From positions 310,001-374,000 of the forward strand of contig JANJGN010000102.1 in NCBI GenBank assembly GCA_026770705.1: a DNA stretch of 64,000 nt. The letters run 5' to 3'. The position numbers and the translations under genes are program-made. Of the stretch, positions 15,701 through 56,024 are shown piece after piece. The notes under the pieces are model-generated. The model saw only the letters and a list, made by a program, of their open reading frames with translations. It was not told the DNA's origin and did not search any database. This stretch comes from Isurus oxyrinchus (taxonomy: Eukaryota). Position 1 is the stretch's first letter, and each line of letters begins with the position of its first letter.

Positions 15701-15719
15701 AACAGTGCGACACAGTAAC

Positions 15720-17926: not shown

Positions 17927-17974
17927 AAAGACACAGTCACAAACAAACACACACACAGTCACAAACACAGTCGC

Positions 17975-18017
<43 letters not shown>

Positions 18018-19001
18018 TAGAGTCACAGACACACTCAGTCACAAACAAAGTCACACACACACACACAGTCACAAACATGCTTAGTCACAAACACAGTCAC
18101 AAACAAACACACACAGTCTCAAACACAGTCACGCACGCACACACAGTCACAAACACGCTTAGTCACGAAGAGAGTCACGCACGCACACACAGTCACAAGC
18201 ACGCTCAGTCACAAACAAAATCACGCATGCACACACACACAGTCACAAACACGCTTAGTCACAAACACAGTCACAAACAAACACACACAGAGTCACAAAC
18301 ACGCTCAGTCACAAACAGTCACAAACAAACACACACAGGCACAAACACGCTTAGTTACAAACAGTCACAAACAAACACACACGCAGTCTCAAACACAGTC
18401 GCGCACGCGCACACACACGGTCACAAACACGCTCAGTGACACACAGTCACAAGCATGCTCAGTCACAAACAAAATCACGCACGCACACACACGCAGTCAC
18501 AAACACGCTTAGTCACAAACAGAGTCACAAACAAACACACACAGAGTCACAAACACAATCGCGCACGCACACACACACACAGTCACAAATACGCTCAGTC
18601 ACAAACAGTCACAAACAAACACACACAGAGTCACAAACACAGTCTCGCACGCACGCGCACACACAGTCACAAACACGCTCAGTCACAAACACAGTCACAA
18701 ACAAACACACACAGGCACAAACACGCTTAGTTACAAACACAGTCACAAACAAACATACACACACAAAGTCACAAACACGCTCAGTCACAAACAGTCACGC
18801 ACAAACACACATGCACACGCACACACACACACACACACACAGTCAAAAATATGCTCAGTCACAAAAACAGTCACGCACGCACACACACACACACACAGTC
18901 ACAAACACGCTTAGTTACAAACACAGTCACGCATGCACACACAAAACACTCACAAACACAGTCACGCACAAATACACACACACACACACACACACACACA
19001 C

Positions 19002-19117
19002 GGCAGAATTTTATGACAGCAGGGATTTTACGTTCCCGCTGTTGTCAATGGCATTTATAACAGCCCGCCGCATTTTACGGCCCTGTCCCCGTGGTAACGG
19101 GGCCGTAAAATTCTGCC
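19002..19117. mobile_element. 116-bp MITE, copy 1
   Basis: 12-bp TIR GGCAGAATTTTA ... TAAAATTCTGCC, same end type as the Harbinger remnants. Confidence 0.75.
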
Positions 19118-19672
19118 CACACAGTCACAAACATGCTCAGTCACAAACACAGTCATGCACAAATACACATACACACACACACATACACAGTCAAAATCAT
19201 GCTCAGTCACAAACACAGTCACGGACAAACACACACATACAGACAAAAACATGCTCAGTCACAAACTCAGTCACGCATGCACACAGACACACACACGGTC
19301 ACAAACACGCTTAGTCACACAGTCACAAAGACGCTCAGTCACAAACAAAGTCATGCACGCGCACACACACAGTCACAAACATGCTTAGTCACAAACACAG
19401 TCACAAACAAACACACACAGAGTCACAAACACAGTCTCGCACGCACGCGCACAAACGGTCACAAACATGCTCAGTCACAAACACAGTCACAAACAAACAC
19501 ACATAGGCACAAACACGCTTAGTTACAAACACAGTCACAAACAAACACATACACACACACAGTCACAAACACGCTCAGTCACAAACAGTCACGCACAAAC
19601 ACACATGCACACACACACACACACACACACACACAGTCAAAAATATGCTCAGTCACAAAAACAGTCACGCAT

Positions 19673-19705
<33 letters not shown>

Positions 19706-19807
19706 CACAAACACGCTTAATTACAAACACAGTCACGCATGCACACACAAAACACTCACAAACACAGTCACGCACAAATACACACACACACACACACACA
19801 CACACAC

Positions 19808-19923
19808 GGCAGAATTTTATGACAGCAGAGATTTTACGTTCCCGCTGTTGTCAATGGCATTTATAATGCCCCGCCGTATTTTACGGCCCTGTCCCCATGG
19901 TAACAGGGCCATAAAATTCTGCC
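19808..19923. mobile_element. 116-bp MITE, copy 2 (part of the tandem duplication)
   Basis: Same TIRs and same flanks as copy 1, offset 806 bp. Confidence 0.75.
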
Positions 19924-20421
19924 CACACAGTCACAAACATGCTCAGTCACAAACACAGTCATGCACAAATACACATACACATACACACACATACACAGTC
20001 AAAGTCATGCTCAGTCACAAACACAATCACGGACAAACACGCACATACAGACAAAAATATGCTCAGTCACAAACTCAGTCACGCATGCACACACACACAC
20101 ACAGTCACAAACACAGTCACACACAAGCACACATACACACAGTCACAAACATGCTCAGTCACAAACACAGTCACACATTCACACAGTCACAAACATGCTC
20201 AGTCACAAACAGTTACACACACAGTCACACAGTCACAAACACACAATCACAGTCACAGACATACACACAAAGTCACAAATCTGCTCAGTCAAACAAGTCA
20301 CGCATACACACACATACACAAACAATGCACACACACAAACGTGTACACACAGACTCATACAAGCGCACACATATTACATACAAATACAGAATTAAACTAA
20401 CTAATACCCTTTGATTTACAG

Positions 20422-20542
20422 AGGCAACAACGTCAATCATAAAAACCCAGTACAGATTGCAATCTGCGCAGTCGGCTTTGTGATTGGTGCCCTGGGAATG
20501 ATGACTGGCATCTGCCTGATTTTCTACTAGCGGGGAAATGAG
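20422..20542 (+). pseudogene. WA connecting-peptide/TM exon (class II alpha-type TM), frameshift near exon start
   Basis: Acceptor TTGATTTACAG; NNVNHKNPVQIAICAVGFVIGALGMMTGICLIFY*RGNE then GTAAAT. CxxGxxxGxxGxxxG is the class II alpha TM motif. TAG at 20528-20530. Confidence 0.85.
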
Positions 20543-20814
20543 GTAAATCGATTTAATTGTCTCTGGGGGCGGATATCTCTGACCTTCCAGCCAAACAAAT
20601 TGCTGAGAAATGGGTTTCTCTCCAAACTCCTCTTTGTTAATGAACTATGCTCAGCACCGGCAACAATCAGCACAGGAGAAATTAAACTGTTCACGGTGGA
20701 ATGAGTTTGAGGTTGTTTGTATTGATTACTCAAATCTCACACCAAACTGCATGGGGTAGGGTAAAACTTGAATGAGACCAGTAAAGAACTCTGTTCTCAG
20801 TTGAAAATTTGTTG

Positions 20815-22628
20815 GGGACGGTGTAGAGGGAGCTTTACTCTGTATCTAACCCCGTGCTGTACCTGTCCTGGGAGTGTTTGATGGGGACGGTGTGGAGGGA
20901 GCTTTACTCTGTATCTAATCCCGTGCTGTACCTGTCCTGGGAGTGTTTGATGGGGACAGTGTAGAGGGAGCTTTACTCTGTATCTAACCCTGTGCTATAC
21001 CTGTCCTGGGAGTGTTTGATGGGGACAGTGTAGAGGGCGCTTTACTTTGTATCTAACTCCGTGCTGTACCTGTCCTGAGAGTGTTTGATGGGGATGGTGT
21101 AGAGGGAGCTTTACTCTGTATCTAACCCTGTGCTGTACCTGTCCTGGGAGTGTTTGATGGGGACAGTGTAGAGGGAGCTTTACTCTGTATCTAACCCCGT
21201 GCTGTACCTGTCTTGGGAGTTTGATGGGGACAGTGCCCCATGCTGTACCTGCCCTGGGAGCGTTTCATGGGGACAGTGTAAAGGGAGCTTTACTCTGTAT
21301 CTAACCCCGTGCTGTACCTGTCCTGGGAGTGTTTGATGGACACGGTGTAGAGGGAGTTTTAAACTTTATCAAAACCCGTGCTGTACCTGTCCTGGGAGTG
21401 TTTGATGGGGACGGCATTGAGGGAGCTTTACTCTGTATCTAACCCCATGCTGTACCTGCCCTGGGAGTGTTTGATGGGGACAGTGTAGACAGAGCTTTAC
21501 ACTGTATCTGACCCCATGCTGTACCTGTCCTGGGAGTGTTTGATGGGGACGGTGTGGAGGGAGCTTTACTCTGTATCTAATCCCATGCTGTACCTGTCCT
21601 GGGAGTGTTTGATGGGGACAGTGTAGAGGGAGCTTTACTCTGTATCTAACCCCGTGCTGTGCCTGTCCTGGGTGTGTTTGATGGAGACGGTGTAGAGGGA
21701 GCTTTACTCTGTATCTAACCCCGTGCTGTACCTGTCCTGGGAGTGTTTGATGGGGACAGTGTAGAGGGAGCTTTACTCTGTATCTAACCCCGTGCTGTAC
21801 CTGTCCTGGGAATGTTTCATGGGGACAGTGTAGAGGGAGCTTTACTCTGTATCTAACCCCGTGCTGTACCTGTCCTGGGAGTGTTTGATGGGGACGGTGT
21901 GGAGGGAGCTTTACTCTGTATCCTACTCCGTGCTGTACCTGTCTTGGGAGTGTTTGATGGGGACGGTGTGGAGGGAGCTTTACTCTGTATCTAATCCCAT
22001 GCTGTACCTGTCCTGGGAGTGTTTGATGGGGACAGTGTAGAGGGAGCTTTACTCTGTATCTAACCCCGTGCTGTGCCTGTCCTGGGTGTGTTTGATGGAG
22101 ACGGTGTAGAGGGAGCTTTACTCTGTATCTAACCCCGTGCTGTACCTGTCCTGGGAGTGTTTGATGGGGACAGTGTAGAGGGAGCTTTACTCTGTATCTA
22201 ATCCCGTGCTGTACCTGTCCTGGGAATGTTTCATGGGGACAGTGTAGAGGGAGCTTTACTCTGTATCTAACCCCGTGCTGTACCTGTCCTGGGAGTGTTT
22301 GATGGGGACGGTGTGGAGGGAGCTTTACTCTGTATCCTACCCCGTGCTGTACCTGTCTTGGGAGTGTTTGATGGGGACAGTGTAGAGGGAGCTTTACTCT
22401 GTATCTAACCCCGTGCTGTACCTGTCCTGGGTGTGTTTGATGGGGACGGTGTAGAGGGAGCTTTACTCTGTATCTAACCCTGTGCTGTACCTGTCCTGGG
22501 AGTGTTTGATGGGGACAGTGTAGAGGCAGCTTTATACCATATATAACCCCGTGCTGTACCTGTCCTGGGAGTGTTTCATGGGGACGGTGTAGAGAGAGCT
22601 TTACACTGTATCTAACCCTGTGCTTCAA
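20815..22628 (-). repeat. 69-bp satellite array (~26 units)
   Basis: Reverse complement of the unit at 1-901; source of the 23-aa-periodic ORF 21369-22628. Confidence 0.95.
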
Positions 22629-24826
22629 TACCCCTGGACTAAGGAGGCTTCAGACATCCTGGTTCCCTGATCTCCTTGCCAGTGAGCCCTATCCATTTGG
22701 GACAGTTTCGGTTTGGCTATAGTCCTACCTCCAAGGTCGATTAGCCTACCGAGATCTACCACATGCATGAAGAACAGCTGCCAGGGTGTGCTATCTGAGG
22801 CCCATGGAAACTACAGCCCTTAAAGCAGCAGGGGAGAACGGCGGGTGGGCAGAATATTGAATCTGATGGCTGGGTGCTCGGTTTGGCAGACACCCAGCAC
22901 TACAAATATCTTTTGTCACAAATAAGGTGGGGTCCAGGGATCAGCAAACCATACCTGCGGAGGAGCCACAGGACTCGATGCTGAATGGAGAAGGGGCACA
23001 AGATGAAGGGACCCGTGTGGATCGGAGTGATCCAAACCAACCAGCAGAATGTTGAGCCAATCTGTGTCCTAATCTGATTTCACACACACACTCTTGTTCC
23101 TCAAAACTGTGTTTCCTTCAAAAAAAATTACATAATTTCTGCAAACGTGATACTGTTTTATTGTTAATTTTNNNNNNNNNNNNNNNNNNNNNNNNNNNNN
23201 NNNNNNNNNNNNNNNNNNNNNNNNNNNNNNNNNNNNNNNNNNNNNNNNNNNNNNNNNNNNNNNNNNNNNNNNNNNNNNNNNNNNNNNNNNNNNNNNNNNN
23301 NNNNNNNNNNCTCTCTCCCTGCCACTTTGAGGTTTGAAAGCACTTCCTCATTCCAGGGATGAGGAACTTGAGTAACATAGAATCGTTGGCTGGCACAGCA
23401 CAGAAGGAGGTCATTCAGCTCATCGTGCCTGTGCTCTCTGTTTGAAAGAGTGGTCCAATTGGTCCCCTATTCTCCAAGGCTAAAATTTTTCCCCTTCAAG
23501 TATTTCTCCAATTCCCCCTTTTTGAGCGTGAATCTGCTTCCACTGCCCTTTCAGGCAGTGCCTTCCAGATAACAACTCGCTGCGTCAAAAAAATTCTCCT
23601 CATTTCCCCCTCTGGTTCTTCCACCGATTCTCTCCAATCTGTTTGCACCACCCAATCCACGCCCCCCCCCCCCCCCCACCCCCCCTCTGGTTACCGCCCC
23701 ACCTGCCACTGGAAACAGTTTCTCCTTATTTACTCAATTGAAACCTTTCATGATTTTGGATGCCTCGATTCAATCTCCCCTTTAACCTTCTCTGCACCAA
23801 GGAGAACAATCCCAGCTTCTCCAGTCCCTCCACATGAACTGAGGTCCCCTCATCCCCGGGAACCGTTCTGGTAAATCTCCTGTGCCTTCCCTGGTACAGG
23901 AGATGGTACTGAGGGAGTTCCGTGGATGGATTGGAGAAGTTGGGAGTGTTCTCCTTGGGAAGAGAAAGTTGAGAGGAGATTTGAAAGAGGTGTTCAAAAT
24001 CTCAAGAGGCTCTGGGACAGAGTAGATAGGGAGAAACTGTTCCCATTGGCGGAAGGATTGAAAACCAAAGGGACACAGATTTAAGGCGGTTGGTAAAAGA
24101 AGCAATGGGGACATGAGGAGAAACTTTTTCATGCAGTGAGTGGTTAGGATCTGGAATGTGCTGCCTGAGAATGTGGTGGAGGCAGGGTCAATCGAGGCTT
24201 TCCGAAGGGGAATTGGTTCATTATCTGAAAAGGAAGAATGTGCAGGGTTACGGGGAGAAGCCATGGGATGGCACCAGTTGAATTGCTCATGCAGAGAGCC
24301 AGTGCAGACACGATGAGCCAAATGGCTTGCTCCCCGTGACGTAGCAATTTGGTGATTCTGATTAACTGCCCAGAGATGCTCACATCTGTGGACGGCAGCT
24401 GAAGACTATGGTTGATTCTGCTGCCTTCACATGCGTTTTGAGCGCAGAGTCGAAGACCGAGAACATAGGAGGCCATTCAGCCCCTCAGGTCTATTCCCCC
24501 ATTCAACAAGATCACGGCTGATCTGTGACCTATATCCAGATACCCACCTTTGCCCCAAATCCCTTAATACCTTTGGCTAACAAAAATCTCTCAATCTCAG
24601 TTTAAAATTAACTGACCCGGCATTAATTGCCATTTGGTGAAGAGAGTTCCAAACTCCGACCACCCTTTGTGTGTCGAAGTCTTTCCTCATTTCACTCTCA
24701 TTTTTGGACTCTGCCCTCTCATCCCAGGCTTCCCCAACCAGCGGGAAACAGTTTCCCTCTGTCAACACTCTCAGTTCCCCTTAATGTCCTGAAAACTTTG
24801 ATTAAATCACTCCCTGAATCTTCTAA
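21488..24826 (+). repeat. Source segment of the inverted duplicate at 31910-35051
   Basis: Near-identical ORFs in opposite orientation (e.g. 23782-24321 vs 32415-32954). The diagnostic satellite variant at 21488-21520 matches 35019-35051. Confidence 0.93.
23172..23310. other. Assembly gap (139 N)
   Basis: N run; the equivalent position in the inverted copy holds a (CA)n microsatellite (~33431-33490). Confidence 0.98.
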
Positions 24827-30327: not shown

Positions 30328-30633
30328 GAAAGGTTGACCGTCTGCAAGAATGCTCAAAGGCTCAAGAGGGCCAAAGATGCCTCTAAATTGAATAGGCAGA
30401 AGGGACAGTCTCTGTCATCTGGATTGAAGGGCCCCGTGTGAAATGGTGATCAGGGGCGCCAGTCCACGCCAGCCAAATATCAGCACCAGAAACCTGAGGT
30501 GGGGCTTCTCTGGACAGGACTGAAAACCGACCCCACATCACTTGTCAACCGACTGGGGAGAGACGGAGGCAGAGGCTGGTATGTGGGGAAGAACTGGAAA
30601 TGGGTGGCACTCAGCGTAACCAGAGTTGTAAAG
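30328..30633 (+). pseudogene. Exon upstream of the TM exon: either a short ATG exon (30600-30633) or a decayed Ig-V exon
   Basis: Strong donor G|GTAAGA. ATG at 30600 gives MGGTQRNQSCK in phase 1. Ig-like pieces AQEGQ, SVIW, GWYV, VTRVV lie in mixed frames upstream. Confidence 0.4.
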
Positions 30634-30699
30634 GTAAGAGATGGAACCTGCTTTAACTCTTTGGGCGGAAAGGAGAAAAGTGGGCCCTACCAGGTGGTA

Positions 30700-31150
30700 G
30701 GGGTTTAGAAGGTGCTGTCGAAGGAGCCTTGGCGAGTTGCTGCAGTGCATCCTGTCGATGGTACACACACTGCTGCCCCTGTGCGTCGGTGGTGGAGGGT
30801 GTAAATGTTGAAGGTGGTGGATGGGGTGCCAATCGAGGGGGCCGCTTTGCCCTGGATGGCGTCGAGCTTCTTGAGTGTTGTTGGAGCTGCACTCATCCAG
30901 ACAAGCAGAGAGTATTCCATCACACTCCTGACTTGTGCCCTGTAGATGGTGGACTGGTTTGGGGAGTCAGGGGGTGAGTTATTCATCGCAGAATTCCCAG
31001 CCTCTGACCTGCTCTTGTTGCCACAACATTTATATGGCTGGTTCAGTTCCGTTTCTGGTCAATGGTAACCCCCTCCCTTAGGATGTTAATAGTGGGGGAT
31101 TCAGTAATGGTAATGACATCGAATATGGTCATTGCCTGGCACTTGTGCGG
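30700..31150 (-). mobile_element. HER1/CR1-type LINE fragment
   Basis: IYRAQVRSVMEYS..WMSAAPTTLKKLDAIQ. Confidence 0.85.
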
Positions 31151-31404
31151 CATGAAGGTAACTGGCACCATGAGAGTGGGACTCATAGGGGTGAATTCAG
31201 GGCAATATTTCAGACCAATCCATGGCTGGACAAGTGGACGTGGGGCCGCAAGTGCAGGACATCTCTTTGGGAGGGGAATTGGTGGAACGGAGACAAATAT
31301 CCCTGTAAGGGGAGAGGAAGAATGGCTGGGTCTTTGGGGTAGGGTTAAGAAGTGACCACCTCTCCTGTGCCTGTTTAACTCTGTGAACTGTGTTGACCTG
31401 GCAG

Positions 31405-31521
31405 GATTACAGGATCTGTGCTGCAGTTCCCTGATGTGGACCATCTTAGGGGCCACAGGATTTTTCCTGTTCCTCTCTGTGACTTGTAACATTCTCTGCT
31501 GTGCTCGGAGCTACAGAAAAG
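31405..31521 (+). CDS. TM exon of a small transmembrane adaptor/receptor (TRAT1/SIT1-like TM)
   Basis: Phase 1-1, 117 nt, CTGGCAG / G|GTAACA; GLQDLCCSSLMWTILGATGFFLFLSVTCNILCCARSYRK. Confidence 0.7.
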
Positions 31522-31781
31522 GTAACATGTCTTGCCAGACAGCTTCTGCTATAGGTGGCTTTGGGGGAGTTGAGGAGGGCTAGGTGTGGTTAGGTTGGTT
31601 TGGTCACAGGACGAGCAGGAGTGGCTCAGTCACTGGGGCTGAAATGCTTCCCACTCGCATCTAGATTGCGCAGTCACTCAATGTCCTGCTGAGCAAACAG
31701 CATGTGGCCTCCCGGTATCAGCTACGGCTCAGTGTGTCAAAGGGTAGTGGGGTCAAGCCCCACCCAACACACAAAATCCAG

Positions 31782-33429
31782 AGATAAAAACAAAGAAAAC
31801 TGCGGATGCTGGAAATCCAAAACAAAAACAGAATTACCTGGAAAAACTCAGCAGGTCTGGCAGCATCGGCGGAGAAGAAAAGAGTTGACGTTTCGAGTCC
31901 TCATGACCCTTAGAAGATTCAGGGAGTGATTTAATCAAAGTTTTCAGGACATTAAGGGGAACTGAGAGTGTTGACAGAGGGAAACTGTTTCCCGCTGGTT
32001 GGGGAAGCCTGGGATGAGAGGGCAGAGTCCAAAAATGAGAGTGAAATGAGGAAAGACTTCTACACACAAAGGGTGGTCGGAGTTTAGAACTCTCTTCACC
32101 AAATGGCAATTAATGCCGGGTCAGTTAATTTTAAACTGAGATTGAGAGATTTTTGTTAGCCAAAGGTATTAAGGGATTTGGGGCAAAGGTGGGTATCTGG
32201 ATATAGGTCACAGATCAGCCGTGATCTTGTTGAATGGGGGAATAGACCTGAGGGGCTGAATGGCCTCCTATGTTCTCGGTCTTCGACTCTGCGCTCAAAA
32301 CGCATGTGAAGGCAGCAGAATCAACCATAGTCTTCAGCTGCCGTCCACAGATGTGAGCATCTCTGGGCAGTTAATCAGAATCACCGAATTGCTACGTCAC
32401 GGGGAGCAAGCCATTTGGCTCATCGTGTCTGCACTGGCTCTCCGCATGAGCAATTCAACTGGTGCCATCCCATGGCTTCTCCCCGTAACCCTGCACATTC
32501 TTCCTTTTCAGATAATGAACAAATTCCCCTTCGGAAAGCCTCGATTGACCCTGCCTCCACCACATTCTCAGGCAGCACATTCCAGATCCTAACCACTCAC
32601 TGCATGAAAAAGTTTCTCCTCATGTCCCCATTGCTTCTTTTACCAACCGCCTTAAATCTGTGTCCCTTTGGTTTTCAATCCTTCCGCCAATGGGAACAGT
32701 TTCTCCCTATCTACTCTGTCCCAGAGCCTCTTGAGATTTTGAACACCTCTTTCAAATCTCCTCTCAACTTTCTCTTCCCAAGGAGAACACTCCCAACTTC
32801 TCCAATCCATCCACGGAACTCCCTCAGTACCATCTCCTGTACCAGGGAAGGCACAGGAGATTTACCAGAAAGGTTCCCGGGGATGAGGGGACCTCAGTTC
32901 ATGTGGAGGGACTGGAGAAGCTGGGATTGTTCTCCTTGGTGCAGAGAAGGTTAAAGGGGAGATTGAATCGAGGCATCCAAAATCATGAAAGGTTTCAATT
33001 GAGTAAATAAGGAGAAACTGTTTCCAGTGGCAGGTGGGGCGGTAACCAGAGGGGGGGTGGTGGGAGGGGGTTCAAACAGATTGAAGAGAATCGGTAGAAG
33101 AACCAGAGGGGGAAATGAGGAGAATTTTTTTGATGCAGCGAGTTGTTGTGATCTGGAAGGCACTGCCTGAAAGGGCAGTGGTAGCAGATTCACGCTCAAA
33201 AAGGGGAAATTGAATAAATACTTGAAGGGGAAAAATTTTATCCATGGAGAATAGGGGACCAATTGGATGGCTCTTTCAAACAGAAAGCACAGGCACGATG
33301 AGCTGAATGACCTCCTTCTGTGCTGTGCCAGCCAACGATTCTATGTTACTCAAGTTCCTCATCCCTGGAATGAGGAAGTGCTTCCAAACCTCAAAGTGGC
33401 AGGGAGAGAGAGAAGGGCAGAATGTTAAA

Positions 33430-33479
<50 letters not shown>

Positions 33480-35145
33480 AAATACACACACTACTTACAA
33501 AGTCTAAAATTAACAATAAAACAGTATCACGTTTGCAGAAATTATGTAATTTTTTTTGAAGGAAACACAGTTTTGAGGAACAAGAGTGTGTGTGTGAGAT
33601 CAGATTAGGACACAGATTGGCTCAACGTTCTGCTGGTTGGTTTGGATCACTCCGATCCACACGGGTCCCTTCATCTTGTGCCCCTTCTCCATTCAGCATC
33701 GAGTCCTGTGGCTCCTCCGCAGGTATGGTTTGCTGATCCCTGGACCCCACCTTGTTTGTGACAAAAGATATTTGTAGTGCTGGGTGTCTGCCAAACCGAG
33801 CACCCAGCCATCAGATTCAATATTCTGCCCACCCGCCGTTCTCCCCTGCTGCTTTACGGGCTGTAGTTTCCATGGGCCTCAGATAGCACACCCTGGCAGC
33901 TGTTCTTCATGCATGTGGTAGATCTCGGTAGGCTAATCGACTTTGGAGGTAGCACGACAGCCAAACCGAAACTGTCCCAAATGGATAGGGCTCACTGGCA
34001 AAGAGATCAGGGAACCAGGATGTCTAAAGCCTCCTTAGTCCAGGGGTATTGAAGCACAGGGTTAGATACAGTGTAAAGCTCTCTCTACACCGTCCCCATG
34101 AAACACTCCCAGGACAGATACAGCACGGGGTTAGATACGGTATAGAGCTGCCTCTACACTGTCTCCATCAAACACTCCCAGAACAGGTACAGCACGGGGT
34201 TAGATACAGAGTAAAGCTCCCTCTACACCGTCCCCATCAAACACTCCCAGGACAGGTACAGCACGGGGTTAGATACAGAGTAAAGCTCCCTCTACACCAT
34301 CCCCATCAAACACACCCAGGACAGGTACAGCACGGGGTTAGATACAGAGTAAAGCTCCCTCTACACCGTCCCCATCAAACACTCCCAGGACAGGTACAGC
34401 ACGGGGTTAGATACAGAGTAAAGCTCCCTCTACACTGTCCCCATCAAACACTCCCAGGACAGGTACAGCACGGGGTTAGATACAGAGTAAAGCTCCCTCT
34501 ACACCGTCCCCATCAAACACTCCCAGGACAGGTACAGCACGGGGTTAGATACAGAGTAAAGCTCCCTCTACACCATCCCCATCAAACACACCCAGGACAG
34601 GTACAGCACGGGGTTAGATACAGAGTAAAGCTCCCTCTACACCGTCCCCATCAAACACTCCCAGGACAGGTACAGCACGGGGTTAGATACAGAGTAAAGC
34701 TCCCTCTACACCGTCCCCAACAAACACTCCCAGGACAGGTTCAGCACGGGGTTAGATACAGAGTAAAGCTCCCTCTACACCGTCCCCATGAAACATTCCT
34801 GGGACAGGTACAGCACGGGGTTACATACAGAGTAAAGCTCCCTCTACACTGTCCCCATCAAACACTCCCAGGACAGGTACAGCACGGGGTTAGATACAGA
34901 GTAAAGCTCCCTCTACACCGTCCCCATCAAACACACCCAGGACAGGTACAGCACGGGATTAGATACAGAGTAAAGCTCCCTCCACACCGTCCCCATCAAA
35001 CACTCCCAGGACAGGTACAGCATGGGGTCAGATACAGTGTAAAGCTCTGTCGAAGGGTCATGAGGACTCGAAACGTCAACTCTTTTCTTCTCCGCCGATG
35101 CTGCCAGACCTGCTGAGTTTTTCCAGGTAATTCTGTTTTTGTTTT
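31782..35145. mobile_element. Composite insertion: inverted Penelope tail, 3.1-kb captured genomic copy, Penelope tail; 13-bp TSD
   Basis: TSD ACACAAAATCCAG at 31769-31781 and 35146-35158. Tails at 31784-31911 (-) and 35046-35145 (+). The host SINE is split and resumes after the TSD. Confidence 0.88.
34049..35051 (+). repeat. 69-bp satellite array inside the captured segment
   Basis: Direct inspection. Confidence 0.95.
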
Positions 35146-35174
35146 ACACAAAATCCAGGCTGACTCTTCTATTG

Positions 35175-35825
35175 CAGTACTGTCGGATGGTCAGTGTTGA
35201 GGGAGAGCCGCACTGTCGGATGGTCAGGACTCACGGAGTGCCGCACTGTCGGAGGGTCAGTACTGAGGGAGCGCCGCACTGTCGGAGGGTCAGTACTGAG
35301 GGAGCGCCACACGGTTGGAAGGTCAGCGCTGAGGGAGCGTCACACTGTTGGAGGATCAGTACTGAGGAAGCGCCGCACTGTGGGAGGGTCAGTGCTGAGG
35401 GAGCGCCGCACTGTCGGAGGGTCAGTGCTGAGGGAGCGCCGCACTGTCGGAGGGTCAGTGCTGAGGGAGCGCCGCACTGTCGGAGGGTCAGTGCTGAGGG
35501 AGTGCCGCACTATCGGAGGGTTAGTACTGAGGGTACACCACACTGTCAGAGGGTCAGTACTGAGGGAGCACCACACTGTCGGAGGGCCAGTACTGAGGGA
35601 GCTCCGCCCTGTCGGTGGGCCAGTGGTCAGTACTGAGGGAGTGCCATACTGTTGGATGGTCAGTGCTGAGGGAGCGCAGCATTGTCAGAGGGTTAGTGCT
35701 GAGGGAGTGCCGCACTGTCGGAGGGTCAGTGCTGAGGGAGTGCTGCACTGTCGGAGGGTTAGTGCTGAGGGAGTGCCGCATTGTCGGAGGGTTAGTGCTG
35801 AGGGAGTGCCGCACTGTCAGAGGTG
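35175..35825 (+). repeat. 30-bp minisatellite (GTCAGTACTGAGGGAGCGCCGCACTGTCGGAGG-like) expanded from a SINE body
   Basis: About 21 units directly following the resumed SINE sequence. Confidence 0.9.
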
Positions 35826-36297
35826 TGTACCAGAGTAAAGAGTTAGTTTATCTTGCAGCTGTTTGCCTGACACAGTTAACCTTTACATAATGCAGGCACG
35901 TATCTGGAATCTCTCGCCTGTAACAGACTTTATGCCCAGGGCTTACTTCTGCGCTGCTCAACCGCTGCAAGTGTGGGTGGGCTCAGGAAATGCTGCAACC
36001 AATCCTGGGTGTGTCTGAAAAGTGACCTGGGCTGCCGTTGCCTTGGAATTTGGCCTCTCTCCATGGCCGAAGTCAAACGCGGCGAGGAGGAGAGGCTGTG
36101 CCCTCTTGAGGTGAGGTGTCTCCAGAGCTGAGCTTACCTCGCACCTGCTGGGGGGGGGTCTGCAGTCAGCACCGCTTTGTACTGACAACCCACAAAGCCC
36201 ACGGTGACCCCAGGCATGTCCAGCGAGGGCAGACAGGGGACATGGAGCGACCTACAGGAGACAAACAGGCAGAGTATGGGGAAGGTGGTGAGGAGGA

Positions 36298-36522
36298 GGG
36301 GACGGTGTAGAGGGAGTTTTGCTCAGTATCTAACCCCGTGCTGTACCTGTCCTGGGAGTGTTTGATGGGGACTGTGTAGAGGGAGCTTTACTCTGTATCT
36401 AACCCCGTGCTGTACCTGTCCTGGGAGTGTTTGATGGGGACGGTGTAGAGGGAGCTTTACTCTGTATCTAACCCTGTGCTGTACCTGTCCTGGGAATGTT
36501 TGATGGGGACAGTGTAGAGGCA
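36298..36522 (-). repeat. 69-bp satellite, ~3 units
   Basis: Direct inspection. Confidence 0.9.
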
Positions 36523-36547
36523 GTTTTATGCCTGTATACTTTGGACT

Positions 36548-37050
36548 ATGTCAGTATTTACAGGCGGTCTCGAGGGAGCGTGTCAATATTTACAGGGTGT
36601 CTATGGGGAGTGTGTGAGTATTTACAGGGGATACCGGGGAGTGCGTCAGTATTTACAGGGGTTCCCCGGGGAGTGTGTCAGTATTTACAGGGGGCCCCTG
36701 GAGAGTGTGTCAGTATTTACAGGGGATACCGGGGAGTGTGTCAGTATTTACAGGGGGTACCGGGGAGTGTGTCAGTATTTACAGCGGGTACCGGGGATGT
36801 GTCAGTATTTACAGGGGGTCCCCGGGGAGTGTGTCATTATTTACAAGGGGTACCGGTGAGTGTGTCAATATTTACAGGAGACCTCTGGAGAGTGTGTCAG
36901 TATTTGCAGGGGTACCGGGGCGTGTGTCAGTATTTACAGGGGGTCCCCGGAAGTGCGTCAATATTTACAAGGGATCCCCGGGGTGTGTGTCAGTGTTTAC
37001 AGGGGGTCCCCGGGGACTGTGTCAGTATTTACGGGGGTCCCCAGGGAGTG
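36548..37050 (+). repeat. ~31-33-bp minisatellite (GTGTGTCAGTATTTACAGGGGGTACCGGGGA)
   Basis: Direct inspection. Confidence 0.9.
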
Positions 37051-37059
37051 AACTAAAAG

Positions 37060-37188
37060 GGTTCTGAAGAAGAGTCATACGGACTCAAAACGTTCACTCT
37101 GTTTTTCTCTCCACAAAAACTGCTGATTTTTCCAGCACTTTTTGTTTTCGTTTCAGATTTCCAGCATCACCAGTATTATGCCTTTATC
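37060..37188 (+). mobile_element. Solo Penelope tail (older subfamily)
   Basis: CTGAAGAAGAGTCATACGGACTCAAAACGTT... homologous to the tails at 4935-5065 and 61330-61470. Confidence 0.7.
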
Positions 37189-37189
37189 A

Positions 37190-39800
37190 AATGAGGACAT
37201 ATGGGTAGAAGTAAAACACAAAAGGGGCAAACACACTTTTGGGTGTGTACTATAGGCCCACAAAGAGTCAGGCCGAGATAGAGGATCAAATATGCAATCA
37301 AATTTCAGAGAAGTGTAAGAATAATAAGGCAGTAATAGTGGGGGATTTTAACTACCCAAATATTAACCAGGATAGTTTTAGTGTGCAAGGTAAGGAGGGA
37401 GCAAAATTCTTAAGTTGCATCCAGGAGAAACTTTTTAGCCAGTACATAGAAAGCCCAACAAGGAAGGGAGCAGTTCTGGACCTAATATTCGGAAATTAGC
37501 CTGGGCAGATGGAAGGCATATCAGTAATGGAGCATTTTGGAGATAATGACCATAACTCAGTTAGATTTAGGATAGTTATGGAAAAGGATAAGGTTGGGCC
37601 TGGAATAAAAGTTCTAAATTGGGGAAATGCTAATTTTAATAAGATGAGATACAATTTGGCACAAGTGGACTGGGAGCAGCTACTTGCAGATAAAACTGTG
37701 TCAGAGTAGTGGAAGGCATTCAAGGAGAAAATAGTGAGAGTACAAGGCAAATATGTTCCCGTAAAGATAAAGAGGGGCTCTAAGTCTGAAGAATGCTGGA
37801 TGTCAAGGGACATAAAGGTTAGGATTAAGAGAAAAAGAGAAGCTTATGGCAGATACTGAGGGCTCAATATGGCAGAGTCCCAAGAGGAGTATAAAAAGTG
37901 CAAGGGGAACTTAATGGAAACTACGAAAGCTAAGAAAGTGCATGAGAAAGCATTGATGGGTAGAGTAAAGGAAAACCCAAAGGGGTTTTTTAAATAGATA
38001 AAGAGCAATAGAATAACTAGGGGAAGAGTAGGGTTAATTAGGGACCATGGAGGTAATCTATGTGTGGACCCGGAAGATGCGGGTACAGTCCTCAATGAAT
38101 ACTTTGCGTCGGTCTTCACAATGGAAAAGGACGATGCAGGTATAGACATCAGGGTGGAGGAATGTGAAATATTAGAGGAAATTAACATAGAGAGAGAGGA
38201 GGTGCTTGTGGGTTTAGCGGCCTTAAAAGTGGATATATCCACAGGCCCGGATGAGATGTATCCCAGGCTGCTGAGGGAGGCAAGGGAAGTGATATCAGGG
38301 GCCCTGGCAGTAATTTTCAATTACTCTCTGGCCACAGGTGAGGTGCCGGAGGATTGAAGGATTGCTAACGTTATCCCATTATTGAAAAAGGAAGGAAGGG
38401 ATAGACTAGGAAATTACAGGCCAGCCAGTCTAACCTCTGTGGTGGAGAAGTTACTAGAAAGAATTCTGAGGGACAAAATATATCTGCACTTGGAGAGAGA
38501 CGGATTAATCAGGGATAGTCAGCATGGATTTGTTAAGGAAGGTCATGTTTGACAAATTTGATCTAATTTTTTGAGGAGGTAACCAGGAGTGTTGATGAGG
38601 GTAATGCATTTGATGTGGTCTACATGGACTTTAGCAAGGCTTTTGATAAGGTCCCTCATGGCACACTGGTCAAGAAAGTAAGAGCCTATGGGATCCAAGG
38701 CAAAGTGGCACATTGGATCCAAAATTGGCTGAGAGGCAGGAAGCAGAGGGTGATGTTAGAGGGATGTTTCTGTTACTGGAAGTCTGTTTCCAGTGGGATT
38801 CTGCAGGACTCAGTGCTGGGGCCCTTGCTGTTTGTGATGTACATAAATGATTTGGACTTAAATGTAGGGGCTATGATGAAGAAGTTCATGGATGACGTGA
38901 AAATTGGTAGGGTGGTAAATAGTGAGGAGGATAGCCATAAACTGCAGGAGGATATCAATGGTCAGGTCAGGTGGGCAGAGCAGTGACAAATGGAATTCAA
39001 CCTGGAAAAGTGTGAACGAATGCACATGGGGAGGGCTAACAAGGCGAGGGATTACACTATGAATGGTAGGATCCTGGAAAGTACTGAAGATCAGAGGGAT
39101 CTTGATGTGCATATCCAGGGATTCCTGAAGGTAGCAGGGCAGGTAGATAAGGTGGTTAAGAAAGCATATGGGATACTTGCAATTATTAGTCGAGGCGTAG
39201 AAGAGCCAGGAGGTTATGCTGGAACTGTACGAAATGCTGGTCAGGCCACAATTGAGTACTGTGTGCAGTTCTGGCCACCACATTATAGGAAGGATATGAT
39301 TGCACTGGAGAGGGTACAGAGGAGATTTACCGGGATGCCACCTGGGCTGGAGGGTCTGAGCTATGAGGAAAGATTGTATAGGCTGGTGTTGTTTCCCTTG
39401 GAGCAGCGATGTTTGAGGGGGGACCTGATAGAGGTGTATAAGATTATGAGGGGCATAGATAGGGGGGACAGGAAAGCACTTTTTCCATTAGTAGAGGGGT
39501 CAATAACCAGGGGGCATAGATTTAAGGTAAGAGGTAGAAGAGTAAGAGGCGAGCTGAGGTGAAATTTTTTCACCCAGAGGTTGGTGGAAGTCTGGAACTC
39601 ACTGCCTGAAAGGGTGGTTGACTCAGAAATGCTCATAACATTTAAGAAGTATTTAGATATTCACTTGCATTGCCATGGCCTGCAGGGTCATGGGCCAAGC
39701 GCTGGAAAATGGAATTAGTGTAGTCAGATCTTTGTTGACCAGCATGGACACGATGGGCCAAATGGCTTCCTTCTGTGCAGTAAAAGTCTATGAGTCTATG
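37190..39800 (+). mobile_element. CR1 LINE, most of ORF2 (APE C-terminal half and RT) plus 3' UTR, with stops and frameshifts
   Basis: GVYYRP, IVGDFNYPNI, VLDLIF, YMDFSKAFDKVPH, FMDD, FFTQRLVEVWNSLP; (CTATGAGT)n-type tail. Confidence 0.95.
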
Positions 39801-39912
39801 GGGGTGAGAGAAACTGCCATTTACTTGGAATATTTTTGGCTGTATAAGAATATTTCAGGGGTTGTGGATATATTTAACCCAGTAGTACAACTTGGTGTTT
39901 TTCTGTTTCCAG

Positions 39913-40020
39913 CAAAGTTCATTAACCGGGCAGGACCATGTCGGATGAATCCATGCAATTCCAGTATGCGGTCCAGTAGCTCAAACACTTCTAACTCCTC
40001 CAACACCAGGTGCTCTTCAG
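39913..40020 (+). CDS. Ser-rich cytoplasmic exon of the TM adaptor/receptor
   Basis: TTTTTCTGTTTCCAG / CAG|GTAACT, 108 nt, phase 1-1; AKFINRAGPCRMNPCNSSMRSSSSNTSNSSNTRCSS. Confidence 0.6.
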
Positions 40021-40062
40021 GTAACTGTGGTTCTATATATCTGTCAACCTGTTTTCGGTCAT

Positions 40063-40390
40063 GGGGCAGGATTTTTCCTATGGCGGGCGGGATGGGCGGG
40101 GGTAGGCACGGAGCCAATCGCCTCCCGCAATCTGCTCCGCACTGCCATTTTACACGGGCAGACCAATTAAGGCCCGCCCAGCGTAACACACGACCAGTAG
40201 TGCTCAGTGCTACTTGCGCGGGCAGGGGGAGGAGAGAGAGTCAGGGCCAGTGCTCCTTCGCGCATGTGCGCAAAAGAGCGCAGCAATCTCCCTGAGGCAC
40301 AGAGCTGCCTCACGGAGATTGAATGGATATTAAAACAATTGAATAAATGATTTAAAAATGTATTTAAACATGTCCCCTCATGTGACTGAG
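40063..40390 (+). mobile_element. Harbinger-type non-autonomous element end
   Basis: GGGCAGGATTTT terminus and CpG-rich subterminal sequence related to 16336-16620 and 44670-45020. Confidence 0.55.
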
Positions 40391-40646
40391 TAATGCTGCA
40401 TTCTGTAAATAACTCGGATATTAAGTAAAAAGATTGGTGTCTGGTTTCCTGTTTCACCGTCTGGCTTTGTAATCAGTTGCCATCTAACTCTTACTGTGAG
40501 ATTTTGTTAAATACAAAATGGCTTCCACAAGGCCATATTCAACCAATTCATTATCAAGTACTTTGGGCTGTTCCTCAGAAAGATGATCAGAGTGTTATAT
40601 AAACTCCAACTTTTCCTCCTTAATCTCATTCTCTTTTCCTTCCTAG

Positions 40647-40732
40647 AATGCAAAGTCAGATATGAAAGATTGTGGGAAAATTTGAAGAATTTTAATTCCA
40701 TGTTTCTATCTGTATTCACTGCAGTTTTCTGA
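40647..40732 (+). CDS. Candidate last exon with ITIM (VRYERL)
   Basis: Strong acceptor CTCTTTTCCTTCCTAG, phase 1; ECKVRYERLWENLKNFNSMFLSVFTAVF*. Confidence 0.5.
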
Positions 40733-42009
40733 TCAAACTTTATGTTATCATTGTCGTTCAGTCTCTCAGTGTCCTGTTTGTGTGTGAGCTTTCATTGGGA
40801 TTTGTCATCCCTGTGCGTGCTGAAAACTGTCAATAGATTTACTGATCACTCTCACCATTTCCCCAAAACATGTTCAGTAAATAATGGGGTCTGTTTATTT
40901 GATGCATTAAAATACATTGGAATGAAAGCTGTCCCATTGTGTTGTGAATGTCTCATCTTACACTGTATTTGTGCTACAACTGGTTAAAATTAAAGTATTC
41001 AGGAACTCTGGCATTTTAGCAATAATAGAGAGGTAAAGGAGTTAGATTGCTCCTGAAACGGGGTTGAGATTTGGGCGCCAGGCGATGTGTACAGAGCTAA
41101 AGAGAGACCGGTGCCAGGATTTTGGAAATCAGTCCGCTGGCCTCCTTCATGTCGGACCATGAATGATGGGTTTTGTCATGACCCCAGAGGCAGCTGACTA
41201 CCCTTGCTGGAAATAATGATCATAACTGTGCTCAATCTGTACACAGGTTAATGAGCCAATCCTCTGCTATGTTGGGTGCCCCTCAATCCCACACCTGCTA
41301 TCTCGCTGTTGCATCTGCAGCTGAAGGTGGGCAGAAGAGAGGGGCTGTGGTGGTTTACGCCCCCACCCTCCATTGATCGCATGCAACGCCATTGGGTCAT
41401 CTTCAAGATGGCAGTAGAGGCAGGTTTTCAATGGATGAGTGGATTGGAGGACTTTCAGTAAATTCGCCCCTTTACAGGTGGCTTACACTGAAGGAGCTGC
41501 TCTTTCTGCAAACAGTTGGCAGGTCTTTTGTCATTTCTGGTGCCAACTCTGACCAGGAGTCTGCCACCTGCACCCAAAATGTTCATCAGGGTGACTATGC
41601 GCCCCTGCTTTCCAGAGGCAGCCCCTGGCTCACGTGCCATGACCCTCACCACCTAGGCTCGACCTCTCATCCTGAAAGGCAGCCTGCAGCATGTACTCAC
41701 CTCTTGGCTGGGACTTGAATCCATGGCCATTGGACTCAGAGGTGGGAGTGCTACCACTGTGGGAAAGAGCAAGAATGGGCCCTTGCAGCTTTAACATGGA
41801 ATACGTTTCGAAGGCATTTTAGAAAAACGGCGACAGGAGAAGAATGAAGAGAATCTTTGCCAAGCCCCAGCAGAAGAATTGAAGAGGAATGACTGAACGT
41901 TTCGTTAGAGAAATCGGTTTCAGATCTTGAAAGGTGGGTTTTGAGGGAGGGTCCATAGCATGTGGGCCGAGGAGGCTGAAGGCAAGGCTGCTAATAGTGG
42001 GGGCAAGGG

Positions 42010-42300
42010 GGTTTTCCCTCGATTTTCCCCTCCAGTAACTGTTTCTGTCTACCATCTGCTCTAGTTATGTGACTGAAGTGTCTTATTTTTCTTGCTCTGA
42101 TGTTCTGTACTAACTTCCTCTCTTCTGCCGCCATTTCCAGCGCTTCCTCATTAGCCTTTCTGTGTTGGGGTCATGCCGAGCATTCTCCCATAAGTCCACA
42201 TCTCTAACGCGTTCAGCTTATCAATAGTCTCTTGGTTTGTTGTCCATGTCTCTGAGTGATATAACATTGGTGTATAAGAAGCAAGATTCACACTGTTGCT
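42010..42300 (-). mobile_element. RTE-clade LINE C-terminal fragment
   Basis: Minus-strand LYHSETWTT...KLNALEMWTYGRMLG...NEEAL...RKIRHFSHITR...LLEGKIEGK. Confidence 0.75.
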
Positions 42301-42539
42301 GTATTCTTGAGCAGGAGTTTACTAGTGCGGCTTGCTGAAAGAAACAAAGTTCCGATGCCAGTTACCCAAGGCATGAACTGCCAACCTCCCGATGTCCTGC
42401 AACACGAACAGATCCCACGGATGTGTAATACAGAGTCTTTGGGAATTATGGCCAGGCACACCTCAAAGAAAGATGTCATGATGCAACCCTAATATCTCAG
42501 ATATAGTTATACAATAATAGTCTTTTTGTATGTAAGCGT

Positions 42540-51106: not shown

Positions 51107-51364
51107 GAGCACACATTTTGCAGGCACAGTTCTCCATCGAAAAATCTCATCATTCAGCAGTTAGCCTGAGGTTCGCTTATGAAGGAACAGAACTCATCCA
51201 GTTCAACTACATCACCAATCAGTTCGTGGCCACTGAGCCGCTGGCAAAGTCTTTCGCTGAGCAACTTAACAGCGACCAGAAGAAGGTCAGAAGGTACATT
51301 CGCTATGGCTCCTTTGCAAATCTGGTGTCAGATGTGGTTTTACGGGCCACTCGCCAACTGATCG
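51107..51364 (+). pseudogene. MHC W-category beta chain (WB) beta1 exon (open, class I alpha2-like)
   Basis: TTTCTCTTCCTTCCAG / G|GTAAGT, 258 nt, phase 1-1; GAHILQAQFSIEKSHHSAVSLRFAYEGTELIQFNYITNQFVATEPLAKSFAEQLNSDQKKVRRYIRYGSFANLVSDVVLRATRQLI. Confidence 0.87.
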
Positions 51365-51546
51365 GTAAGTGCGGAAAAGAGCGGGTAGGGTGGGGGTGGG
51401 AGCGAGAAGTGAGATTAATTGGTTAGAACTTTCAAAGAGCTAACACGGGCATGGTGGGCAGAATGGCATCATCCTGGGCTGTGGGGTGCGGTGTGTTACC
51501 GCATCAAGCATGTACACACGTCAGGAGGCCCCAGCTGACTGAACTC

Positions 51547-52324
51547 TGTCATGAAGTTATTAATGTATACAATATTTTGGAAAATATTTTTCCTTTGAAA
51601 TAGAAGTTTAGTCTGCTGGTGTGTCTTAATTGGATTACAGTCAGCTAGTCTGGGTGCTTGGATATGTACTAGTTTGAGATGTAAACAGAGGGGTAGAGTG
51701 TATTTGCATTTTTTGAATAGAGCATTGAAGAAGTGGGGTGAAACCTTGATGCCTTTCTAGCAGATACCAAGCAATATGTTTTTATTGCTAATAAAATTGG
51801 TACAATGAATGGGGTTTTATTGTTAAAAGGTAAAGTTCAAAGAGTCTGGTCAGACAATGAGAATTTGAATTCAATCAGGGGTGGTAGGTATAACTTCAGT
51901 AGTTTTTGGGTGTGAAAGCAGAGGCAATGTGAGATCAAAAGGCAGCTGCAAGCCTCCAGCTGGCTCCAGAGTGAAAGGAGCCTCATTTTGAATTTGTAAG
52001 GTGAAAATGCTTTGCCTGGTGTTTGGTTAAGTCTATGGGTTGCTGTTGCCCTAATGGAGATTAGTTTGGGAATTTGTTAAAAGATGTGATAGTAGTAATT
52101 TGCCGCCATGTGTATATATATATATATATATTCTAAACCTGTGCAAATTAATAAAATGTTTCAATTAGTTTAATGTAAACCCTGAAGAACTGATGGTCTG
52201 ATTCCTGAATTTAGAGTCGCATCTCGAACATAACACTTAAAATTATAGCTTATGACAGTTGTTTAAAGTTTCCCTCTGGGATTTTTTAAATAACTCCATT
52301 TTACCAACAGCATTGGTCATAACA
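51547..52324 (+). mobile_element. Solo LTR (778 bp, Gypsy-like)
   Basis: TGTCATGA...TCATAACA inverted termini, 4-bp TSD ACTC (51543-51546, 52325-52328), internal AATAAA. Confidence 0.85.
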
Positions 52325-52814
52325 ACTCTGCGCATGTAAAGAGTTGTGAGCACTTGGCCGGCCGGCAACAGTGGTGGGGGGAGTCATTGATGTTGTTCAC
52401 AGCTTGAGCTAATCGAGCAACTTTCCGAACCTCTCTGCATTTCCCTGCAGAGAGTGTCTTTTGCAGTCCACCTCGCTTGAGATCCTTCCTGTCAAAACTA
52501 CAACATTTTAACTGTTTATATATAATGTCTTTAACACAAGAAAAACATCCCTGAGGCACAACGTGCCAGGATTATGAAGCAACCTTTGACCCTGAGACAC
52601 GCCAGGAGATATAAGGGATGGGTGACCAAAAGCTTGCTCACAGAGGTCAATTTTTAAGGAGCATCTTAAAGGAGGAGAGAGAGGGAGAGGGAGAAGTTTA
52701 GGGAGGAAATTTAGGGCCCCAGGCAGCTGAAGGCACAGCCGTCAATAGTGGAGCGATAGAAATCGGGGGATGCTCAAAAAAACAGGTCTGGAGGGACACA
52801 GAGATCTCGAAGGG

Positions 52815-53095
52815 TTATAGGAGGTTACAGAGATAGGGTGGGTTGTTGGGGCTGGAAGAGGTCACAGAGGAAGGGAGGGTTGTAAAGGCTGGAGGAGGTT
52901 ACAGAAGTAGGGAGGGGTGTAGGGGCTGGAGGAGGTTACAGAGATAGGGAGGGTTGTAGGGGCTGGAGGAGGTTACAGAGATAGGGAGGGTTGTAGGGGC
53001 TGGAGGAGGTTACAGAGATAGGGAGGGTTGTAGGGGCTGGAGGAGGTTACAAAGGTAGGGAGGGTTGTAAGGCTTGGAGGAGGTTAAAGAGGTTA
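52815..53095 (+). repeat. 32-bp minisatellite (GGAGGTTACAGAGATAGGGAGGGTTGTAGGGGCT-like), interrupted by a CR1 and resuming at ~54178
   Basis: Direct inspection. Confidence 0.85.
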
Positions 53096-54177
53096 AATTG
53101 GCTGTCTGGCAGGAGGCAGAGAGTGGGGATAAGGGGGTCCTTCTCAGGATGGTGGCCGGTGACTAGTGGACTTCTGCAGGGCTCAGTGTTGGGAGCACAA
53201 CTTTTCACATTATACATTAATGATCTAGATGAAGGAACTGAGGGCATTCTGGCTAAGTTTGCAGATGATACTAAGATAGGTGGAGGGACAGGTAGTATTG
53301 AGGAAGCAGGGAGGCTGCAGAAGGAGTTAGACAGGTTAGGAGAATGGGCAAAGAAGTGGCAGATGGAATACAATGTAGGGAAGTGTGAGGTCATGTACTT
53401 TGGTAGAAGAATAGAGGCATAGACTATTTTCTAAATGGGGAGGGAATTCAGAAATCTGGAGTGCAAAGGGACTTGGGAATCCTAGTCCAGGATTTTCTTA
53501 AGGTTAACTTGCAGGTTGACGTGGTAGTTAGGAAGGCAAATGCAATGTTGGCATTTATTTCGAGAGGACTAGAACATAAAAGCAGGGATGTGCTGCTGAG
53601 GCTTTATAAGGCTCTGGTCAGACCACATTTAGAATATTGTGAGCAATTTTGGGCCCCGTATCTCAGGAAGGATGTGCTGGCCCTAGAGAGGATCCAGAGG
53701 AGGTTCATGAGAATGATCTCAGGAATGAAAGGCTTAACATATGAGGACTCTGGGTCTATACTCAATGGAGTTTAGAAGGATATGGGGGGATCTGATTGAA
53801 ACTTACAGAATACTGAAAGGCCTGGATAGAGTGGATGTGGGGAAGATGGTTCCATTAGTAGGAGAGACTAGGACCTGAGTGCACAGCCTCAGAGTAAAGG
53901 GAAGACCTTTTAGAACAGAGATGAGGAGAAACTTCTTTAGCCAGAGAGTGGTGAATCTATGGAATTCATTGCCACAGAAGGCTGTGGAGGCCAGGTCATT
54001 GAGTGTATTTAAGACCAAGATAGATAGGTTCTTGATTGGTAAGGGGATCAGAGGTTACGAGGAGAAGGTGGGAGAATGAAGTTGAGAAACATTTTATGCC
54101 ATGATTGAATGGCGGAGCAGACTCGATGGGCCGATTGGCCTAATTTCTGCTTCTATGTCTTATGGTCTTATGGTCTA
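53096..54177 (+). mobile_element. CR1 RT/3' fragment
   Basis: VTSGLLQGSVLG, KFADDTKIGG, RPHLEYCEQFW, (TCTTATGG)n tail. Confidence 0.93.
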
Positions 54178-54603
54178 AGAGATAGGGAGGGTTGTAGGAG
54201 CTGCAGGAGGTTGCCATAAGATGTAGGAGCACAAGTAGGTCATTCGGCCCATCCAATCTGCTCTGCCATTCAATGAGATTATGGCTGATCTGATAAACCT
54301 CAAATCCGCTTCCCTGCCTTTTCCCCATAACCCTTGATTCCCTTATTGGTTAAAAGTCTGACACTTCCCTCCATGTCCAGCCACACAGCAAAGATGCTCT
54401 CAGGCGGTGTACTTGAATGATAGAATTTTGCAGCACCAAAGGAGGCCATTCAGCCCATTGACTCTGTGCTATAAATCTGCTGAGGCCACTGGAATTTTCA
54501 TTAATCTGGATTGAGGAAATCTGGGTGATTTTATCTGAAGTCTTTTCTGCTCTGCCGCATTTTCTGAGGAGTTTTGAATCCATTGGCCTTCCATCTTCTG
54601 TAG

Positions 54604-54683
54604 CCAAGCCTTCCATCAACATAACCACCCTCCGCTTGCACCCTTACTTCTGATCTGCCGTGTGGATGGATTTTATCCAAGAG
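54604..54683 (+). pseudogene. WB beta2 Ig-C1 exon, frameshifted and 3'-truncated
   Basis: Acceptor TCTTCTGTAG, phase 1; AKPSINITTLRLHP / LLICRVDGFYPR, then homology stops. Confidence 0.8.
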
Positions 54684-55922: not shown

Positions 55923-56024
55923 CTCCTAAGATGAAAAGCTGGCCGACTTACGGATACGTGACCGGGATAGTATTCATGATACTTGGAATCATAGCCCTGG
56001 CTGGAGGAATCAGCAGGTGGAGAG
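55923..56024 (+). pseudogene. WB connecting-peptide/TM exon (class II beta-type TM)
   Basis: TTCGTTCCCCAG / G|GTAGGA, 102 nt; xPKMKSWPTYGYVTGIVFMILGIIALAGGISRWR. GxxxxxxGxxxxxxG register as in class II beta TMs. Confidence 0.85.

Follow-up and report, generated by a model that had tools for sequence, protein, structure and literature searches.

Locus and exon origins

We describe a composite locus in a 64,000-nucleotide stretch of DNA from the shark Isurus oxyrinchus (GenBank assembly GCA_026770705.1, contig JANJGN010000102.1, positions 310,001 to 374,000, forward strand; hereafter the window), in which exons of the adaptor gene SIT1 are followed by exons of W-category major histocompatibility complex (MHC) beta-chain (WB) genes. 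The window, to which sequence searches for this species were confined, is repeat-rich shark DNA in which the locus is flanked by W-category MHC exons of the + strand, belonging to a WA Nds3L-like gene (7795-23055) on one side and a WB DS1-like gene (51107-58379) on the other; WA and WB names were assigned by visual comparison with Datasets S1-S3 of PMC8713811 (S1 and S2 in selected rows, S3 in parts 1-2 of 3). Between them, where a sequence-only reading had placed a small adaptor gene, four + strand exons (30600-30633, 31405-31521, 39913-40020 and 40647-40732) with AG/GT splice ends, phase 1 throughout, form a reading frame of 114 amino acids without a stop. The coordinates, splice ends, frame and position between WA and WB given in that reading were all reproduced; its description of the locus as the only intact gene of the window is misleading, because the locus is a composite. 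By sequence comparison, the four-exon frame draws on two genes, with exons 1-2 from SIT1 and exons 3-4 from WB Nds5L.

SIT1 (signaling threshold-regulating transmembrane adapter 1) is a lymphocyte adaptor and, in mammals, a negative regulator of T-cell signalling. Coding exon 1 (30600-30633, +) encodes the Met, an N-x-S sequon (NQS) and an extracellular Cys10, ends in the donor AAG/gtaaga, and is identical at 11/11 residues to P0001, the product of great white shark (Carcharodon carcharias) LOC121272835, and at 10/11 to P0002, a SIT1-like protein of the basking shark Cetorhinus; Cys10 is invariant across P0001-P0004. Exon 2 (31405-31521, +), the transmembrane exon, matches the SIT1-like proteins of Cetorhinus (P0002, 36/38 residues), Heterodontus (P0003, 33/38), Heptranchias (P0004, 30/38) and Mustelus (P0018, 25/38). 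Searched with three flanking codons, it matched 4 proteins among 9 candidates, solely P0001 and the SIT1-like proteins of Cetorhinus, Heterodontus and Heptranchias. These three relatives are full-length (206-210 amino acids), two of them are named SIT1-like, and they match the Pfam family SIT (PF15330) with E values of 1.5e-5 to 1.7e-4, below the curated cut-off; Pfam returned no family for exons 2, 3 and 4 taken singly.

A profile built from the three shark SIT1-like proteins matched 22 proteins among 1.84 billion, and the names of the 20 that were looked up comprise SIT1 (8), TRAT1 (2) and entries with no family name (10). The profile scores gar SIT1 at 2.3e-26 versus 1.1e-9 for chimaera TRAT1. 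A tree was built from 18 of the full-length proteins, excluding fragments, P0001 and some weak matches. In it the two TRAT1 proteins form their own branch (100/99) and, when the tree is rooted on them, bony-vertebrate SIT1 and the five shark proteins are sister groups (89/92). Profile scores and tree thus identify exons 1-2 as the N-terminal and transmembrane exons of shark SIT1, orthologous to SIT1 rather than to TRAT1. The sequence-only reading had likened the transmembrane segment to TRAT1: its assignment to a SIT/TRAT1-family adaptor with an extracellular Cys stands, as the relatives match PF15330, while the choice of paralogue does not, given the separate TRAT1 branch and a window devoid of any TRAT1-type tail. 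The TRAT1 tail carries YGNL/YASL and a PI3K YxxM motif. Intact shark SIT1 tails carry five tyrosine motifs (YGNI, YAKL, YTE/YSEV, YASV and YANK), and the cytoplasmic-tail exons encoding them gave chance-level matches only in a six-frame search of the window. As a separate candidate, exon 2 as a diverged W-chain transmembrane exon was ruled out, since it matches SIT1-like proteins at 79-97% and corresponds to no row of Dataset S3 (parts 1-2 of 3).

Exon 3 (39913-40020, +) had been read as part of the adaptor. It is an orphan cytoplasmic exon of the W-category gene WB Nds5L, matching its row of Dataset S3 and identical at 31/35 residues to residues 258-292 of P0005, a great white class II-like beta chain that is WB Nds5L of that dataset (PMC8713811). 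The exon 3 search matched 2 proteins of 6 candidates, P0001 and P0005, and the remainder of WB Nds5L (transmembrane exon, leader and last coding exon) yielded chance-level matches only in the six-frame search of the window. P0011, a Cetorhinus WB isoform X2, has residues matching window positions 39870-39912, intron just upstream of exon 3, which represents an alternative upstream acceptor in WB Nds5L.

Contigs from four runs (sets X1-X4; at most 3 samples, 2 studies and 2 organisms, here A and B) were compared with the window over 39800-42500; the runs were taken as RNA by guess, none being recorded as such. In each of the four runs, contigs show exon 3 spliced on both sides. One type of contig derives from a WB paralogue, in which exon 3 differs from the window at 9-10 of 111 bases and is preceded by WB juxtamembrane sequence (X1). 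In three of the four runs these contigs join 40020/40022 to 40645 via 28/26 extra letters, which code for the final WB residues and their stop; in the fourth run the same letters appear as a loose end. The contigs terminate at 40916-40926, just beyond an ATTAAA at 40906. The corresponding window segment (40647-40926, +) is the WB Nds5L terminal exon minus its first 30 nucleotides, which hold the last codons and stop, and it includes exon 4 as first proposed (to 40732). The missing 30 nucleotides lie between two AG dinucleotides, and their deletion is in frame.

The hexamer VRYERL, coded at 40655-40672, had been taken as the immunoreceptor tyrosine-based inhibitory motif (ITIM) of a 114-residue adaptor; a dedicated adaptor of this kind would recruit SHP-1/2. 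The hexamer is present as described, the acceptor at 40646 and the ATTAAA are intact so that such an isoform could be made, and the deletion keeps the frame and is common to organism A, since record 5 of X1 crosses the site without the 30 nucleotides. In WB transcripts, however, VRYERL directly follows the stop codon; the deletion took out that stop, so VRYERL is read from a former 3' untranslated region (UTR) and the supposed tail consists of a WB exon plus WB 3' UTR. The expected number of ITIM-like hexamers in a 63-residue tail by chance is 0.09 (181 matches in 127,996 six-frame residues), VRYERL lacks a counterpart in all 5 intact shark SIT1 proteins, and comparison of exon 4 with P0001, P0002 and P0005 gives no credible match (scores 9-16). 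The RefSeq model behind P0001 skips exon 4, the 40020-40647 junction is not among the joints listed for the four runs (which is not proof of absence), and the alignment of X1 record 5 ends at 40670, which suggests that the Leu codon of VRYERL has another base in organism A. On its own terms the adaptor proposal would fall if the exons were unjoined or the Tyr not conserved, and for exon 4 this is largely what was found. Judged by these comparisons, exon 4 is WB 3' UTR and VRYERL an accidental ITIM-like hexamer; a dedicated ITIM adaptor is very improbable, and the 114-residue form ending in exon 4 would be a minor isoform at most. At 40732, a 15-nucleotide stretch is missing from organism B contigs of both kinds, one of WB-paralogue type (X4) and one of window type (X3); an allele or gene conversion may explain this.

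The seven-exon fusion path

P0001 (XP_041035582.1) is a 259-residue RefSeq model annotated as uncharacterized, and it is made up of SIT1 exons 1-2, exon 3, and then the WB DS1 beta1 exon, transmembrane exon and two tail exons, with exon 4 skipped. The same seven exons are open in the window (30600-58379), giving 259 residues of which 242 are identical to P0001 (17 differences), with intact splice ends. The fourth exon of the path (51107-51364, +) is a WB DS1-like beta1 exon with a weak MHC_II_beta match, identical at 77/85 residues to P0001 and at 78/85 to the intact great white WB chain P0014. It is followed by a connecting peptide/transmembrane exon (55923-56024, +; 32/33 to P0001; a WB DS1-like row in Dataset S3), which supplies the second transmembrane segment of the fusion, by cytoplasmic exon 1 (56727-56813, +; 27/28), and by the last coding exon (58306-58379, +; 21/23), whose TGA ends at 58379. 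Two hydrophobic peaks are found in the predicted product. A frameshifted and truncated remnant of the WB DS1 beta2 (immunoglobulin C1) exon (54604-54685, +) gives a two-frame tblastn match to residues 102-133 of P0006 only and is skipped in P0001, which has no C1-set match; P0005 has one. The WB DS1 leader and WA DS5/DS10 exons gave chance-level matches only in the six-frame window search. In its beta1 exon the window is as far from great white (7-8/85 residues different) as from basking shark, whereas its other exons are nearer to great white; the cause may be an older allele or faster change.

The chimeric locus is already predicted, unnamed, in great white RefSeq; its parts are known, and there is no new ITIM adaptor. 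A literature search, with most subscription papers beyond its reach, found no paper describing the composite origin of LOC121272835, and the word 'adaptor' is absent from the main text of PMC8713811.

Among the contigs, X2 record 9 (with 5 other letters) and X4 record 23 (with none) are of window type rather than of the WB paralogue, come from two organisms, and both span 39911-40021. Their left edge fits the last AG of exon 2, and their right edge suits a following exon that opens with G, not T; 51107 (GAGC) fits and 40647 (AATG) does not. The contig edges thus fit splicing of exon 3 into 51107, a fit rather than a proof.

Proposed rearrangement and neighboring genes

The WA Nds3L-like gene (+ strand; alpha1 7795-8042, alpha2 11640-11919, transmembrane exon 20422-20542, last exon 22927-23055) is a pseudogene with a frameshift in alpha1, a frameshift and a stop in alpha2, and a stop at the end of the transmembrane exon (20528-20530); its last exon looks intact. 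An inverted copy of its 3' end lies on the - strand in SIT1 intron 2 (31910-34052; 97.1% and 98.2% identical to 22625-24826), carries the WA last exon at 33750-33622, and resembles the tail of great white WA Nds3L as given in Dataset S3. This copy starts 390 bases into the intron and probably marks the break. Misassembly of a repetitive cluster could be argued from the 97-98% identity of the inverted copy and an N gap in one arm. However, the independent great white model has the same exon order, the deletion recurs in organism A, and window-type exon 3, which differs from the WB paralogue at 9-10/111 bases, appears in separate contigs in two organisms; we consider an artefact extremely improbable.

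The inverted duplication as a whole pairs 20808-24826 with 31910-36528, is 97-98% identical in its unique parts, and contains a 69-mer array found also at 1-903; a 139-base N gap in the left arm takes the place of a CA repeat in the right. A 3.8 kb array of 162 copies of a 23-mer (11914-15690) starts within the final bases of WA alpha2, and the repeat unit overlaps both the end of this exon and its donor site. Two copies of a reverse-transcriptase retroelement, 90% identical and in opposite orientation, lie in the WA region (3455-5035, +; 9386-11342, -).

In great white, intact WB Nds5L and WB DS1 are on the same 9,475,417-base contig as P0001, so the WB pieces of the window are a duplicate. 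The window is nearer great white than basking shark in most exons, which suggests that the event occurred in the lamnid lineage. Basking shark has intact SIT1 (P0002), WB DS1 and WB Nds5L (P0006, P0011) on one 942,897-base contig, and SIT1 and WB occur on contigs of equal size in Mustelus (246,137 bases; P0018/P0008) and Heterodontus (16,181,965 bases; P0003/P0009/P0010). SIT1 therefore seems to sit in the shark W cluster in these three genera, a linkage drawn solely from equal contig sizes, with Heptranchias and Hemiscyllium returning no WB match for comparison. The adjacency may already appear in Figs S11-S12 of the SI Appendix of PMC8713811. No literature was found that combines SIT1, shark and MHC, nor any on the YASV motif, and by title none of the adaptor papers among the matches listed concerns sharks.

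Among the matches, P0001 is the only great white protein with this N-terminus and an intact great white SIT1 is not seen, although annotation gaps could explain this. Alternatively, SIT1 would still be whole, the W pieces being an insertion in its intron 2, with the cytoplasmic exons past 64000 and normal SIT1 made by skipping. The window ends 5.6 kb past the WB DS1 stop and bounds the search, which leaves room for such exons. The insertion is nonetheless quite unlikely, as P0001 is the sole great white match with the SIT1 N-terminus, the 90% cluster of P0002 has one member while the WB clusters hold both Cetorhinus and Carcharodon, and two terminal exons stand in the way. A bolder proposal, that lamnids have lost or disabled canonical SIT1 but keep the SIT1-MHC-W fusion under selection, and that the cross-order SIT1-W linkage marks SIT1 as a resident of an ancient MHC-related cluster, is also unlikely.

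Interpretation

We consider it likely that the locus is an expressed fusion relic of SIT1 and WB pieces, most likely non-signalling, in a duplicated and decaying W cluster. In a close relative of great white, a rearrangement of the W-category MHC cluster (duplication, deletions and the inverted WA piece) would have cut SIT1 behind its transmembrane exon and left fragments of two WB genes after it, in the same orientation. The SIT1 promoter would then drive a transcript most likely splicing through whatever phase-1 exons follow; because all exons are phase 1, a transcript begun at SIT1 splices in frame, giving the 259 residues, and the window-type contigs would continue into 51107. The predicted topology has the N-terminus outside, a beta1 domain facing the cytosol with neither beta2 nor a WA partner, and then a second transmembrane segment. 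Such a product has none of the five docking tyrosines of SIT1 and cannot be an MHC chain, so it would most likely be an expressed, non-signalling relic.

Several points weigh against this relic. Both species keep an open frame and all 12 splice ends, and only 1-22% of neutral simulations stay open, with a divergence taken from organism A, not shown to be great white. The similarly sized WA copy has 4 lesions versus 0 in the fusion path (about p 0.06). P0001 is a predicted model, and the fit of the contigs rests on edge positions, with letters past the edges unseen and joints judged among those listed, in runs only guessed to be RNA and over a span that leaves the 30633-31405 and 31521-39913 junctions outside.

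The open frame in two species beside a four-lesion WA gene, together with spliced window-type contigs in two organisms and the lack of an intact great white SIT1 among the matches, would speak instead for a young functional gene that keeps the SIT1 Cys and transmembrane segment and pairs with or replaces SIT1, as a tail-less decoy or a W-chain trafficking partner. The 17 differences from P0001 nevertheless lie within neutral expectation (simulated means of 11-22 at 2-4% divergence). The WB exons of P0001 share 84/85, 30/33, 28/28 and 23/23 residues with the intact paralogue, so gene conversion could keep them open. The beta1-domain topology is moreover implausible, and the single YxxPhi motif adjoins the second transmembrane segment. 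A functional fusion is unlikely, and the expressed relic remains our preferred explanation.

These results remove a false new ITIM adaptor and explain an uncharacterized great white gene as a SIT1/MHC-W chimera. The locus cleanly illustrates phase-1 exon shuffling and the origin of a motif in a 3' UTR. Two leads follow for comparative immunology: the apparent location of SIT1 within the W-category cluster of sharks, and a possible lack of intact SIT1 in great white-type sharks.

Comparison with known systems

Human SIT has tyrosines at Y90GNL, Y127TSL, Y148 (ITIM), Y169ASV and Y188ANS, according to the portion of PMC2193021 consulted, and the intact shark SIT1 relatives have five tail tyrosines in the same order. 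Like human SIT in that account (PMC2193021), the locus keeps a short ectodomain with an N-glycan sequon and a Cys, which in SIT serves disulfide dimerisation, and one SIT1-type transmembrane segment; unlike SIT1, it lacks the entire cytoplasmic tail and has MHC-W exons in its place. TRAT1 (TRIM) shares the Pfam family and a similar transmembrane segment, but a chimaera TRAT1 scores far lower than bony-vertebrate SIT1 against the shark profile, and TRAT1 forms its own branch. Adaptors of the LST1 and G6b type have a conserved, coded ITIM in the tail and bind SHP-1/SHP-2 on phosphorylation; this locus has no such ITIM. The W-category beta chains WB Nds5L and WB DS1 (Okamura et al. 2021, PMC8713811), intact in great white and basking shark, are the source of fusion exons 3-7. 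According to the Fig. 5 legend of PMC8713811, W-category beta genes are paired head-to-head with WA; here the WA Nds3L-like copy lies on the same strand and has 4 lesions. Such chains consist of a leader, beta1, an immunoglobulin C1 beta2 domain, and connecting peptide, transmembrane and cytoplasmic parts. Unlike them, the fusion has no leader or beta2 domain, combines two WB genes in one path, and carries a foreign transmembrane segment in front.

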